From an uncultured Nitrospiraceae bacterium (GTDB taxonomy: Bacteria; Nitrospirota; Thermodesulfovibrionia; Thermodesulfovibrionales; Dissulfurispiraceae): DNA of 64,000 nt. Where the stretch lies: contig CAVPIW010000009.1 in the NCBI GenBank assembly GCA_963705105.1, positions 96,001 to 160,000 of the forward strand, given 5' to 3'. Of this stretch, positions 49,961 to 53,749 are shown piece by piece. Made by a program: the position numbers and the translations under genes. Under the pieces are notes generated by a model. The model saw nothing but the letters and a program-made list of their open reading frames with translations, ran no database searches and was not told the DNA's origin. How positions within the stretch are numbered: the stretch's first letter is position 1; the number at the start of each line of letters is the position of its first letter.

Positions 49961-50788
49961 TCATCCGAATAGACGGCAGTCCGCGCAATGTGCCGCTCTG
50001 CAAATCCCTGCGATGCCCTGGTGGCAGAGGGCGAAATCGTACTTCAGGGGGTCTCGGGGATCGAGGCGCCTCAGGGATTCGGTGATGTCCAAGGCCATTT
50101 TCCAGTCCATGCTCCTCCTGTTCGTCAGGCCGATGCACAGGGCGATCCGGGCGATGTGCGTGTCCAGGGGGATGACAAGTCCATTCTTTGGGATGCCCTT
50201 CCAGATACCGAGGTCGATGTCCCGGTCTCTCACCACCCACCGGAGGAAAAGGCTCATCCTCTTGCAGGTACTGCCGTTTTCCGGCGACGGGAAAAACTGG
50301 AGGAACCCGGGGGGGCGCACGTCCGCTCCATAGACGGCAGAGGTGTCGATCGTGAGAATGGACCGGACGAACCCGGTCATCGCCCTCTCCGTGGTCACGT
50401 CGCCGGGACGGAAATGAGCCATGAAAAGGGCCTCCAGGCTGCCGTAGCTCCTCAGAACCATGGCGACGACGTGAAGGAAGCAGGTGATATCGTCGGTGTT
50501 GTTAAAGCGGTATTTCAGGTCTGACGAGAAACGACGGAGGTCACGGCGGTCTGCGTTCCTCAAAGCCTCATGGGGACTTCCTCCCATCCGGGACAGGATC
50601 GCGCCGACGACGGGCTTGAAGAGATCGACCCTACCGTATGCGAAGGAAGAGGCTATGAATGCCGCGATTTCGGTGTCCGCCCGGTTTGTGTACCGGTGGG
50701 GGAATTCAATGGGATCCTGCCGGAGCCGGCCCTCGAAGTCGAATGTCCTGTAGAGCCTGTCCAGCCGCCGCTTCAGGGACGTGACCGT
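49961..50788 (-). CDS. TIGR02757/DUF2400-family protein (non-canonical start)
   Basis: DPIEFPHRY...EIAAFIAS.FAYG upstream of the first ATG; CKR..LFLRWVVR, D.GIW, IPLDTH, DPLKYDFAL; Cys-rich C-terminus. The 5' end given is an in-frame ACG and is uncertain. Confidence 0.85.
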   Translation of the reverse strand, partial: TVTSLKRRLDRLYRTFDFEGRLRQDPIEFPHRYTNRADTEIAAFIASSFAYGRVDLFKPVVGAILSRMGGSPHEALRNADRRDLRRFSSDLKYRFNNTDDITCFLHVVAMVLRSYGSLEALFMAHFRPGDVTTERAMTGFVRSILTIDTSAVYGADVRPPGFLQFFPSPENGSTCKRMSLFLRWVVRDRDIDLGIWKGIPKNGLVIPLDTHIARIALCIGLTNRRSMDWKMALDITESLRRLDPRDPLKYDFALCHQGIAGICRAAHCADCRLFG

Positions 50789-50794
50789 AACGCC

Positions 50795-51292
50795 CTACCG
50801 GTAATTGACGAACTGGATGTGAATGCCGAAATCCGTTTCCTTGAACTTGGCAATGATCGCCTGGAGGTCGTCGAGCTTCTTTCCCCGCACCCTCACCTGG
50901 TCCTTCTGGATCTCGGCCGTCACCTTGAGCTTCATGTCCTTGATGATCTTGACCATCTCCTTGGCCTTCTCGGTGGGGATGCCCTGCTGGAGCGAGATGA
51001 CCTGCCTGACGGTGTTTCCGGCGGCCTGCTCAATCTTCCCGTACTGGAGGGCCTTCAGGGCGACGCCTCGCTTCACAAGCTTGGTCTGGAGGATGTCGAC
51101 GACGCTCTTCAGCTTAAGGTCATCGTCAGAAATGACAGTCAGCTCGCTTTTTCCCTTGTCAAGCTCGATGTCGCTCTTGCTTCCCTTGAAATCGAAGCGC
51201 TGACCTATCTCTTTCATCGCCTGGTTGACGGCATTCAGGACCTCCTGGAGATCCACAGTGCACGCGATGTCAAAGGTATGTTCTTCCGCCAT
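50795..51292 (-). CDS. yajQ: YajQ-family nucleotide (c-di-GMP)-binding protein
   Basis: FDI...VD.QEV.NAVNQA..EI..RFDFKG, QVRV.GKK.DDLQ, QFVNYR. Confidence 0.95.
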   Translation of the reverse strand: MAEEHTFDIACTVDLQEVLNAVNQAMKEIGQRFDFKGSKSDIELDKGKSELTVISDDDLKLKSVVDILQTKLVKRGVALKALQYGKIEQAAGNTVRQVISLQQGIPTEKAKEMVKIIKDMKLKVTAEIQKDQVRVRGKKLDDLQAIIAKFKETDFGIHIQFVNYR

Positions 51293-51313
51293 TGTCTCCT
51301 CCCTTTTCGATGA

Positions 51314-51499
51314 TCACGCGGTCGGCTTCCGCGACGTTTCCTTCATACTCTCCGCCGTCAATCGCAATAATTCCCGCGGATCGGGCTTGCAGACGGGACA
51401 GAACGGTTCCCCCAGGTCCAGGAGGCACACATGCCCTCATTCCGGACAGCAGATGCAGGCATGGACAGGCTCCCGGCAGACCGGACAGAGATCGGACAT
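51314..51499 (-). CDS. Candidate small Cys-rich selenoprotein (61 aa, UGA at codon 21)
   Basis: MSDLCPVCREPVHACICCPE-U-GHVCLLDLGEPFCPVCK...; Cys motifs continue past the UGA; SECIS-like hairpin; extended -10 element upstream. Confidence 0.7.
51409..51425 (-). promoter_or_regulatory. SECIS-like hairpin
   Basis: CCUCC-UGGACCU-GGGGG beginning 11 nt after the UGA, G in second loop position. Confidence 0.5.
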
Positions 51500-51667
51500 G
51501 ACGAAATTATACCACAGAGAGCGGCCGTGCGGCGGTCCCGCCCCGAGGGTGTTCATTTTCTCGCCTTTTCTTCGATAAATGATAGAGGAGCCTCATGCAG
51601 GCAGCAGGATTAATGCGTCCATGAATAAAACATTTGTAAAACCTATGCCGTTCCGTATTATGATACT

Positions 51668-53749
51668 GTGTGTACCGGTTTATCATCCCCGACAAAAGCA
51701 GGTGCGGTCCGTTTGAACACTGAACTGAATGATATACAATCCCTGATCAGGTCCCTCGCGGAGATCCAGCATACCATCTCGGAGATCGGCGACCTTTCCT
51801 TTGCATCCTACGACAGCCGGGGCGTTCAACTGTTGCCCCCGAGACGTGAAGACCGGTTGACGAGCACCATTCGCTCTCATCCCGTCGGAAGGGAGGAATA
51901 CGACAAGTACATCTCCCAGGGCGTCAAGAGGGCCGTTTTGCGGAAAGAGGCATCCATACTGAGAGGTCCTGCGAGCCAGCATAACATCTTCATCCCCGTT
52001 GATGTGAGTGAAGCACGGTTCGTCCTTGTCAGCAGTCCTTTCTATGTCTCGAAGCAGGATTTTGACGACTTTCTCAGGAGGAGGGGGCGGATCCCCGATC
52101 TTGCGTCGGGAAAGGAGGCCTTCCCCCCGCGCTGCAAGCTGAAGGATTCCGACTCGGCGCAGCAGGTGGCGGTCCACGTCAAGAAGCTCTTCGAGACCCT
52201 CCTGACGAGCGTCTATGAGCGGAACCAGAATTCCAGGCGGTATCTGTGGACGAAAACACTGATCGACGTGCTGCTGAACATGAAGCTGCCCCTGCCGATC
52301 GACGACGCCCACAGAATGATCCTTGACGCAATCCTCTTTCTATTCAGCGTGAACACCGCATCCATCATGGTGAAGAGGGGTGTGCACTTCGAGACGGTCC
52401 TTGCTCTGGGCAGCATGAAAAACGTCGTCGGATCTTTCAGGGTCCACGAGGATTCGCCGGCCCTGGCCCTGTCGGTGAAGAAAATGATCCAGACATCGCT
52501 CGTCAACCCGAAGGAGATCCTCAGCCTCGGACTCGCCGACGAAATCAAATCGGTCCATGTCTTTCCCCTTTCGTCTCACACCTTTCTTCACGGTCTGATC
52601 ATGATCTTCAACTCCAGGGTGTCACGTGACGAAGCGCAGAGCATACTCGAATTCTGCAGGCTCTCGAGCCTGATCCTGAAAAACCTCTCCATCGAAAACG
52701 ACTGCGACCGTTATGTCAACAATCTCACCATGCTCAATGTCGCCGTCTCAAAGATCGACCCCCGGCTCAACGATCCCGCTTCCCTCCACAGGCAGATCGT
52801 GATGACCGCTACGGATCTCCTGCAGGCCGAGAAAGGCTCCCTCATTCTGCCTGAAAACGGGGATCTCGTTATCAAGGCCGTCCGGGGCATCAACGAATGG
52901 CTGACGCATAACATCCGCCTGAAGCCGGGAGTGGGCATTTCCGGCATCGTGTTCAGGGATGGCCGGCCGATGCTCGTACGGAACGTCGACAGGATCGAGA
53001 TACCTGACTACAGACCACGTTTTCACTACCGGAAAAAATCGTTCATCAGCATGCCCCTGCAATTCTCCTCCGAAACGATCGGCGTCCTCAACATAACGGA
53101 CAGGCTTCACGGCGACGAGTTTACCGAACAGGACCTCAACATTTTGAAACACTTCGGCACCTATGCATCTATCGCCCTGAAGGTGTTCAGCTATCACCGG
53201 CTGGCCGAGCAGATGAAGGAACTCTCCATCACCGACCATCTGACGGGCCTTTACAACCGCAGGTACCTCCAGGAGCGGTTCAGTGAAGAGATCCACCGCT
53301 CCGACAGGTACAAGCTTTCATTCTCCGTCAGCCTCATTGACATAGACGACTTCAAGCTATTCAACGACAGCGAAGGTCATCTTGCCGGCGATGGCGTCCT
53401 CCGGGACCTCGCCCACATCGCCCGGGAGAACTCGAGGGCGAACGACGTCATCGCGAGGATAGGCGGAGAGGAGTTCGCGATCCTCATGCCCCAGACGGAC
53501 AGGGACGAGGCCTTCCTCGTGTCTGAGAGGATCAGGAAAACCATCATGGAGACCCTGACCCAGAACTGGAAAAAATTCCCCCGGTCGTCGGTGACGGTCA
53601 GCATCGGCATATCGACCTTTCCCCATCACGGCAAGACTGTCCAGGACATGATCGAAAAGGCCGACCTCGCCCTCTACCGCGCCAAAGCGACGGGGAAAAA
53701 CAGGACCGTCATTTTCGAGGAAGAACTCAGGCGAAGAGAGATTCCCTGA
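51668..53749 (+). CDS. GAF-domain diguanylate cyclase
   Basis: GAF domain(s), D.LTGLYNRR, RAND I-site, GGEEF active site; true start may be TTG at 51713. Confidence 0.92.
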   Translation: MCTGLSSPTKAGAVRLNTELNDIQSLIRSLAEIQHTISEIGDLSFASYDSRGVQLLPPRREDRLTSTIRSHPVGREEYDKYISQGVKRAVLRKEASILRGPASQHNIFIPVDVSEARFVLVSSPFYVSKQDFDDFLRRRGRIPDLASGKEAFPPRCKLKDSDSAQQVAVHVKKLFETLLTSVYERNQNSRRYLWTKTLIDVLLNMKLPLPIDDAHRMILDAILFLFSVNTASIMVKRGVHFETVLALGSMKNVVGSFRVHEDSPALALSVKKMIQTSLVNPKEILSLGLADEIKSVHVFPLSSHTFLHGLIMIFNSRVSRDEAQSILEFCRLSSLILKNLSIENDCDRYVNNLTMLNVAVSKIDPRLNDPASLHRQIVMTATDLLQAEKGSLILPENGDLVIKAVRGINEWLTHNIRLKPGVGISGIVFRDGRPMLVRNVDRIEIPDYRPRFHYRKKSFISMPLQFSSETIGVLNITDRLHGDEFTEQDLNILKHFGTYASIALKVFSYHRLAEQMKELSITDHLTGLYNRRYLQERFSEEIHRSDRYKLSFSVSLIDIDDFKLFNDSEGHLAGDGVLRDLAHIARENSRANDVIARIGGEEFAILMPQTDRDEAFLVSERIRKTIMETLTQNWKKFPRSSVTVSIGISTFPHHGKTVQDMIEKADLALYRAKATGKNRTVIFEEELRRREIP

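Follow-up and report, generated by a model that had tools for sequence, protein, structure and literature searches.

A small cysteine-rich gene of Nitrospirota with an in-frame UGA, very probably encoding a new bacterial selenoprotein, is related to an N-terminal module of TadA

Selenoprotein genes are systematically mis-annotated, their UGA codon being taken as a stop. Here, we describe a gene of this kind on the minus strand of a 64,000-nucleotide (nt) stretch of DNA (hereafter, the window) from an uncultured Nitrospiraceae bacterium (contig CAVPIW010000009.1, positions 96,001 to 160,000; assembly GCA_963705105.1), where a cysteine-rich open reading frame (ORF) of 61 amino acids (aa) is crossed by a TGA at codon 21. 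Among described families, the one that invites comparison is NF041197 (CxxC_Se_CxxC), which the 2026 catalogue of prokaryotic selenoproteins (PMC13188914) lists as 'hypothetical protein OS_HP3/DW'. Each of the two is a predicted selenoprotein of very small size (about 55-60 aa) whose single selenocysteine (Sec, U) lies between two CXXC knuckles, and both are known from their sequences only; NF041197 has four cysteines and a G/R-x-U context, whereas the small protein studied here has nine Cys/Sec residues and a His, the motif C-C-P-E-U-G-H, a conserved C-terminal helix and relatives fused to the tRNA adenosine(34) deaminase TadA. As judged from anatomy and comparison of the gene, the UGA is almost certainly read as selenocysteine, and the gene very probably represents a real, so far uncatalogued bacterial selenoprotein family. 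The explanation we favor, at a probability of roughly 0.88, is that of a genuine selenoprotein whose UGA would be recoded by a downstream hairpin on a leaderless mRNA, yielding a metal-knuckle product tied to TadA or tRNA.

Searches of existing families returned nothing that covers the small protein. No Pfam model matched it (best, the RING model PF13920 (zf-C3HC4_3) at 10.1 bits and E 0.76, against a gathering threshold of 27 bits), nor did any NCBIfam model (best E 8.6), and among the 119 prokaryotic selenoprotein families and subfamilies in Table 1 of the 2026 catalogue (PMC13188914) no entry fits. This bears out a preliminary description of the same DNA, made from the letters alone, which had proposed a selenoprotein of a family its author did not recognise. 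NF041197 (cut-off 40 bits) did not match the small protein at E<=10, and NF041239 (CC/Se motif family; cut-off 40 bits) had no match at the locus, its best score in the genome (E 0.91) falling elsewhere. A member of NF041197 is encoded in the same genome (G000) at C5:511198-511356 (49.4 bits over 53 positions, one TGA, ...CKEC...AG-U-K...CTLC...), a candidate for a second small selenoprotein in this organism. Public homologues of our protein, found by alignment search after a single-sequence word search had given no candidates, were Cys forms (annotated as 'hypothetical protein' or, in two cases, as 'rubrerythrin'), fragments starting after the TGA, or entries with W or R at the Sec column; querying the ESM Atlas with the Cys form P0002 gave only 'hypothetical protein' clusters with scores below 0.9. 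Literature searches on Thermodesulfovibrio and Nitrospirae selenoproteins, on bacterial selenoprotein families and their selenocysteine insertion sequence (SECIS), and on TadA together with selenocysteine turned up neither this family nor any selenoprotein linked to TadA, although the supplements of deep-Sep and BSepDB could list it. Selenium in the host group, the class Thermodesulfovibrionia of the Nitrospirota, is barely covered in the literature searched.

The ORF runs from an ATG at 51499-51497 on the minus strand, through the TGA at 51439-51437, to a terminal TGA at 51316-51314. With the inner TGA as U it reads MSDLCPVCREPVHACICCPE-U-GHVCLLDLGEPFCPVCKPDP...PTA (61 aa), around the core C-P-V-C...C-I-C-C-P-E-U-G-H-V-C...C-P-V-C-K-P. 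A hairpin of 17 nt begins 11 nt past the UGA and spans nt 15-31 (counting the U of UGA as 1), and the ATG of yajQ follows the end of the ORF after 21 nt. The ORF, its codon-21 TGA, the hairpin, an extended -10 element and the distance to yajQ had all been reported in the preliminary description, and each was found where it had been placed. They amount to more than a chance arrangement, because dozens of related genomes share the TGA, the reading frame before and after it, and the positions of hairpin and -10 element.

When 61 genomes (that of the window and 60 relatives) were searched in six frames, 33 best matches with E <= 6.4e-7 were obtained, 30 of which contain the in-frame TGA; the other three (in G009, G035 and G040) have Cys at the Sec column. 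A pattern scan over one genome per prokaryote species returned 317 stretches; tblastn confirmed 198 of them, and 80 were kept, with titles that are nearly all those of Nitrospirota, Nitrospirae or Thermodesulfovibrionales metagenome-assembled genomes (MAGs). At 198 confirmed loci in species-representative genomes, the family would add a widespread entry to the prokaryotic selenoproteome. Pooling the two locus sets, removing duplicates and applying a strict motif left 83 unique loci from many genera and families, at which the Sec column is TGA in 67 and TGC or TGT in 16, and the frame is kept across this codon in every one. Nine loci lay outside the strict motif: six with TGA (L076, L100, L103, L122 and the divergent L030 and L031), the Cys forms L090 and L119, and L115, inspection of which showed nothing. 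The preliminary description had looked to homologues for Cys/UGA pairs with conservation past the UGA, and both were found; its fear that the TGA might be peculiar to this one sequence was not borne out.

Homologues align end to end and share an M-x-x-C start, three residues ahead of the first Cys. Across 109 aligned sequences, C5, C8, C17, U/C21, H23, C25, C34, P35 and C37 are invariant, and C15, C18, E20, G22, D28, G30, E31, V36 and P39 nearly so, such that the stretch after the UGA follows the pattern G-H-V-C...G-E..C-P-V-C-K-P. Fourfold-degenerate sites in this stretch vary even where the residue is fixed (V+3, 1.67 bits; P+14, 1.51 bits; V+15, 1.89 bits), a combination that speaks for purifying selection on the protein encoded past the UGA. 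In the divergent Sec forms L030 and L031 (genus g19) the N-terminal Cys pairs are lost and D-C-x5-U-G-H-I-C...C-P/S-I-C-K-P is left, which points to U21, H23, C25, C34 and C37 as the minimal conserved site. Two irregular copies were also seen: L129 (G112:C45), a TadA fusion in which TGA replaces the invariant Gly30, and L119, which has a stop within its Cys-form module; both are probable assembly errors or decaying copies.

Such errors in MAG-rich data, and the fact that a single base change turns TGC or TGT into TGA, lend some color to the idea that the TGA is a true stop arising from nonsense mutation, pseudogene formation or sequencing error, with a 20-residue peptide or nothing being made. 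We consider this highly improbable. The TGA occupies the same codon throughout the 67 loci, the 40 codons downstream of it are under protein-level selection with synonymous change left free, the hairpin codons are frozen in TGA forms only, and the genome has the machinery for Sec. Less credible still is the notion of two micro-ORFs, namely a 20-aa peptide up to the UGA and a second, separately initiated peptide. A plain ORF listing of the window, with TGA as a stop, does contain a 38-aa ORF from a GTG at 51430, and public gene calls include post-TGA fragments (P0031, P0033). However, the codon for Val+3 is GTG in just 10 of the 65 Sec-form sequences that have Val there, the rest using GTC, GTA or GTT; Cys forms and TadA fusions show the two halves to be one domain; and the frame across the TGA is never lost.

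The Sec machinery in question comprises selA (594 bits), a SelB wing domain in a 657-aa ORF (E 3e-20), selD (317 bits, with an in-frame TGA of its own) and a tRNA-SeC with anticodon TCA called by ARAGORN, all in the window's own genome. The four sel genes that the preliminary description had wanted confirmed are thus present, selC being the tRNA-Sec, and its objection of a genome devoid of Sec machinery falls away. SelB was found in 60 of the 61 searched genomes, in keeping with the Sec reading, the lone miss being an 89%-complete genome. The presence of SelB was also tried as a means of telling Sec from Cys genomes and failed, as Cys-form genomes carry it too.

Decoding of the UGA independently of SelB and SECIS, be it by near-cognate read-through as Trp or Cys or by a lineage-specific reassignment of TGA, is very unlikely. 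It would accommodate the W or R at the Sec column of the public translations P0019, P0035 and P0008, and the genome does have a Sec-like long tRNA with a Cys anticodon. Yet this selC*-type tRNA has the anticodon GCA, not UCA; the hairpin resembles the genome's own fdhA and selD SECIS elements; and the W entries are best explained by pipelines that use another translation table. Nor is TGA reassigned, because it serves as an ordinary stop elsewhere, terminating the small ORF itself and many of its homologues. Concerning the Sec-form homologues P0008, P0019 and P0035 themselves, their R or W residues suggest a TGA=Trp table or a mis-call. The long tRNA (G000:C10:176600-176691; 96 nt) scores 55.9 bits, above the Rfam gathering threshold for tRNA-Sec, and is called tRNA-Cys (GCA) by ARAGORN; it fits the 'selC* tRNA-Cys' class reported from Nitrospirae and Thermodesulfovibrio (PMC5389517).

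As in the E. coli fdhF type and the consensus bacterial SECIS (bSECIS), the hairpin lies in the coding region just 3' of the UGA and has a G early in its loop; unlike them, it has no evident bulged U, and its SelB function is putative. Its 11-nt offset and 17-nt size are presumably those of the minimal E. coli fdhF element. The bSECIS model of Zhang and Gladyshev, as summarized in the legend to Fig. 2 of the 2026 catalogue (Zhang et al. 2026, PMC13188914), specifies an apical loop of 3-9 nt, an upper stem of 4-16 base pairs (bp), a G within the first two loop positions, a UGA-loop gap of 16-37 nt and a fold whose minimum free energy (MFE) is at or below -7.5. The hairpin lies within each of these ranges with its 7-nt loop, 5-bp stem, G at loop position 2 followed by another G (G21-G22 counted from the UGA), 16-nt gap and MFE of -7.6 for the core or -14.4 over 48 nt, its UGA-loop spacing and core energy being at the edge of what this legend allows. 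Established elements in this genome have the same geometry: fdhA-1 has a stem from nt 15-21 and the loop GGACU, fdhA-2 the loop GGUCU at nt 22-26, and selD a stem from nt 15-20 and the loop GUC. With its stem at nt 15-19 and its loop UGGACCU, the small-ORF hairpin resembles these fdhA and selD elements and shares onset and GGAC motif with fdhA-1; it differs from fdhA in having a loop of 7 nt, not 5 nt.

Sec and Cys forms differ in this region. The mean 48-nt MFE is -17.5 (standard deviation (sd) 2.9) in the 67 Sec forms versus -11.7 (sd 4.0) in the 16 Cys forms, and the 5-bp stem is intact in fixed register in 49/67 of the former versus 2/16 of the latter. Within Sec forms, the codon for Leu+5 is CTC in 45 of 47 sequences, that for Leu+6 is CTG in 64 of 66 (0.20 bits, versus 1.73 bits in Cys forms) and that for Gly+9 is GGG (51) or GGA (11) in 62 of 67, while neighboring fourfold sites are free (1.5-1.9 bits). 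The hairpin codons of Sec forms, and of these alone, thus appear nearly frozen, as would be expected from a constraint at the RNA level. In the hairpin alignment, 86.8% of cells are paired, versus 44-53% when partners are slid. In 65 distinct sequences the outer-stem pairs (alignment columns 10-14 with 46-50) are preserved, which is weak evidence because these pairs fall in invariant codons.

Several observations weigh against the hairpin as a SECIS element. In dinucleotide shuffles of the GC-rich window stretch, the 48-nt MFE of -14.4 kcal/mol is not exceptional (z +0.48; 132/200 shuffles fold as well), nor is the -7.6 of the 21-nt core (z -1.14; 36/200 as stable). Covariation is not significant: a single pair has changed in both partners, and the observed values are reached by 266 to 370 of 500 shuffles; RNAalifold counted 0 compensatory pairs, and an Rfam search at E<=10 returned only a spurious internal ribosome entry site match at the locus. 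RNA and protein constraint are partly confounded, because the hairpin sits in strongly conserved codons, and Sec forms are closer kin to one another than Cys forms are to one another. A second Sec clade, with U-S-H at the site and genes beside tadA, lacks a hairpin at 11-nt spacing; a candidate distal stem-loop with an apical GUCC at nt 41-44 is seen in 4 of its 6 sequences. Of the SECIS-like hairpin in the preliminary description, the position, the fit to the bSECIS model and the recurrence in relatives hold up, and the folding energy by itself does not rise above that of shuffled sequence in the window.

Taken together, anatomy and comparison suggest the following course of events. A ribosome reaching the UGA at codon 21 would face, 11 nt further on, a stem-loop presenting G21-G22 in its loop. 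This stem-loop would recruit SelB with Sec-tRNA(Sec), such that selenocysteine is inserted instead of termination taking place. Translation would then stop at the following TGA, located 21 nt ahead of yajQ and not accompanied by a hairpin of this kind.

The start of the gene suggests that this message has next to no leader. In the window, the TATAAT of the extended -10 element ends 6 nt ahead of the ATG, and there is no Shine-Dalgarno (SD) sequence. Across the loci, a TATAAT-like hexamer ending 4-9 nt ahead of the ATG is found for 59 of 77 small ORFs, versus 44 of 354 starts of neighboring ORFs at the same loci, and 58 of these 59 hexamer-bearing ORFs are without an SD; overall, SD-like sequences occur at 7/77 small ORFs versus 107/354 control starts. 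The count leaves aside 6 of the 83 unique loci, which lack upstream sequence or a start codon or are fusions. The extended -10 of the small ORF is missing from the output of a sigma-70 scan for which a -35 hexamer was obligatory. Most copies look leaderless on this sequence pattern, and in the window the promoter would fire 6-7 nt downstream of the extended -10, implying an mRNA that begins with its AUG, at or beside A51499. If so, the UGA lies just 60 nt from the mRNA 5' end, and such leaderless-looking copies would offer a compact natural case for SelB-dependent recoding near an mRNA 5' end. A terminator-like hairpin (CACGG...CTGTG, 51513-51529 on the minus strand) abuts and overlaps the extended -10 and could insulate the leaderless promoter from upstream read-through. 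RNA evidence consists of assembled contigs from three small-share runs, in which 5' ends are not visible and gaps in coverage carry no weight. One contig, from an RNA library of a relative, spans 51286-51474 and retains the TGA, with 13 differences in 189 nt; it is a weak hint that the relative transcribes the locus, tempered by the possibility that the library holds DNA.

The product would consist of a ~43-residue module that carries nine Cys/Sec residues and a single His, and of an amphipathic helix C-terminal to it. In an AlphaFold model, the Cys-rich part is nearly without regular secondary structure and a helix extends over residues 41-54/56. A profile search of PDB sequences aligned C-x2-C-G-H...C-P-V-C with the zinc ribbon of the archaeal RNA polymerase subunit B (E 0.0057), followed by the TRIM5 RING (E 0.01) and rubredoxin (E 0.016), all of them marginal. 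With the knuckles of the polymerase ribbon and rubredoxin the small protein has in common the pattern C-x2-[C/U]-G-H ... C-P-V-C; it differs from them by five further conserved Cys and a His, and a Sec as knuckle ligand would be unusual. We infer metal binding because of the nine invariant or near-invariant Cys/Sec residues with the His and the weak likeness to zinc ribbons and rubredoxin. In a CPxCG-type knuckle, with the later CPVC as its partner, the Sec would stand at the second ligand position, most likely creating a metal site (Zn, or rubredoxin-type Fe) with a Se ligand; a redox-active Cys-x-x-Sec pair is the alternative. Sec at a predicted metal-knuckle position, and not in a thioredoxin-like fold, is one reason for interest in the family. 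Several results temper this view of function: the predicted local distance difference test score is only moderate (70.3 with 27 sequences, 74.4 with 109); Foldseek found nothing in the PDB at E<=0.001 (best, RING domains at E 1.5 and TM score 0.18); VIA-align returned 0 of 48,161 chains at Z>=2; and the zinc-ribbon, RING and rubredoxin similarities are weak (E 0.006-0.016).

A connection to TadA, absent from the preliminary description, is new here. In four Cys-form loci and in the public protein P0015, the module makes up the N-terminal part of a protein of ~195 aa that is otherwise TadA (P0015 residues 50-195: NF008113 at E 4.9e-48; PF00383 and PF14437). All 13 longer homologues (13/13) are TadA fusions with PF00383. 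Profile alignment of stand-alone with fused forms by hhalign gave 99.6% and E 1.7e-24 over residues 1-43 (44 columns), which argues that the small-protein module is homologous to the N-terminal domain of TadA in sister lineages of the class. In relation to TadA as described (NF008113; PF00383/PF14437), the small protein corresponds to the N-terminal 45 residues of those sister-lineage enzymes; it lacks the deaminase domain (no H-A-E, no P-C-x-x-C), and canonical TadA lacks the module. No published account of a TadA N-terminal module was found on the topics of selenoproteins in Nitrospirae and Thermodesulfovibrio, of bacterial selenoprotein families and of TadA with selenocysteine. A derivation of the stand-alone form's C-terminal helix from TadA helix 1 was considered and dismissed, as the hhalign alignment ends at residue 43.

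Sampling 201 genomes of the class gave a TadA-type match in 184, and among the 150 matches listed at least 11 span module and TadA; another 8 genomes have a module ORF immediately 5' of tadA. The arrangements are diverse. The Cys-form module is fused to TadA in G063 and G158 and encoded directly upstream of tadA in G126 and G101. G072 encodes a TadA fusion in which a TGA falls precisely on the Sec column (C-C-P-E-U-S-H-V-C), G102 a Sec-form ORF as in G072 that ends 5 codons ahead of the tadA ATG, and four further members of that genus (G076, G094, G122, G134) Sec-form module ORFs 14-206 nt upstream of tadA; these make up the second Sec clade mentioned above. These Sec and Cys variants, in fused, adjacent and unlinked form, constitute a natural experiment. 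In one further genome (L156, G143:C24), the TadA N-terminus retains the first ~15 module residues (M-K-N-N-T-E-F-C-E-I-C-R-E-P-V), joined straight to the deaminase, as though an internal deletion had removed the Cys-rich core.

The module would accordingly be a domain that forms the N-terminus of TadA, the tRNA A34 deaminase, in sister orders, fused to it or encoded immediately 5', and the small protein could assist TadA, or tRNA handling, as a separately expressed factor. The guess is made because of this fusion and 5' placement in sister orders, and it is the least certain step of the proposal: from the comparative data, we put a TadA or tRNA role for the small protein at not far below an even chance. 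It nonetheless turns ties of evolution and gene position to an essential tRNA-editing enzyme into a concrete functional hypothesis. In its most specific version, the small protein would be a trans-acting Se subunit of TadA, in which a Se-ligated knuckle or a Cys-x-x-Sec switch couples A-to-I editing to redox or selenium status. We regard this version as unlikely; if true, selenocysteine and tRNA editing would be linked for the first time, a zinc-ribbon-type site would offer a natural case of a Sec ligand, and for one genus the Sec would be carried by TadA itself or by the partner encoded directly 5' of it. Prediction of a complex between the Cys form of G009, its TadA and 3 Zn gave no answer (score 0.00) and is neutral on binding.

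Against a TadA role, the gene is not beside tadA in the window's order: the organism's own TadA is a separate 155-aa protein without the module, and its gene lies about 87 kb off on the same contig. The protein may instead be a real selenoprotein unrelated to TadA or tRNA, for example a CxxU redox protein, a rubredoxin-like Fe(Cys)3(Sec) carrier or a metallothionein-like buffer, with the fusions reflecting ancestry. This reading we hold to be quite possible, at somewhat less than even odds. CxxU occurs commonly as a redox motif in selenoproteins of the catalogue (PMC13188914), the weak PDB profile matches include knuckles of rubredoxin and rubrerythrin (E 0.016 and 1.6), the Cys density is metallothionein-like, the commonest neighbors of the unlinked gene are yajQ, dnaX and an NfeD-like gene, and L030 and L031 retain only U-G-H-x-C...C-P-x-C. 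On the other hand, TadA is the only fusion partner found; fusion to or adjacency with TadA recurs in several families of the class, Sec forms included; there is no signal of a thioredoxin-like fold and no Pfam match to metallothionein or rubredoxin; and the most frequent operon partner, YajQ, is reported to bind GTP and tRNA in E. coli (An et al. 2014, PMC4199771).

The features of the locus are collected in Table 1.

Table 1. Coordinates of the probable selenoprotein gene and its surroundings in the window
Feature	Position	Strand	Basis
Predicted selenoprotein coding sequence, 61 aa	51317..51499	-	Sequence and translation; stop TGA 51314-51316 outside
In-frame UGA, codon 21, almost certainly read as selenocysteine; motif C-C-P-E-U-G-H-V-C	51437..51439	-	TGA in 67/83 and Cys in 16/83 loci; Sec machinery
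Putative core SECIS hairpin, 5-bp stem CCUCC/GGGGG, 7-nt loop UGGACCU	51409..51425	-	Fold, bSECIS criteria, likeness to fdhA, synonymous-site freeze
Extended lower stems flanking the core hairpin, nt 4-44	51396..51436	-	Centroid structure
Extended -10 element TG-n-TATAAT	51506..51514	-	Read from sequence; recurs in homologues
yajQ (DUF520) gene	50795..51292	-	Pfam PF04461, E 3.1e-61
GAF-GGDEF protein gene, upstream, opposite strand	51668..53749	+	Domain search

In 21 loci in addition to the window, the small ORF is followed immediately, on its own strand, by a YajQ homologue; other downstream partners are dnaX in 11 loci and the NfeD-like gene in 10. In the window, yajQ has its own ribosome-binding site (GGGAGGAG, 51296-51303), and the small ORF and yajQ probably share one transcript. 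A GAF-GGDEF gene is upstream and divergent in 7 loci, the window's own included, so that here the small ORF is flanked by a divergent GAF-GGDEF diguanylate cyclase gene and by yajQ. Some YajQ proteins are effectors of cyclic di-GMP, as stated in the same source (PMC4199771), and the GGDEF-YajQ pair may be a cyclic di-GMP module independent of the selenoprotein. Finally, a 247-aa ORF antisense to yajQ (50570-51313, plus strand) is a by-product of GC-rich coding sequence.

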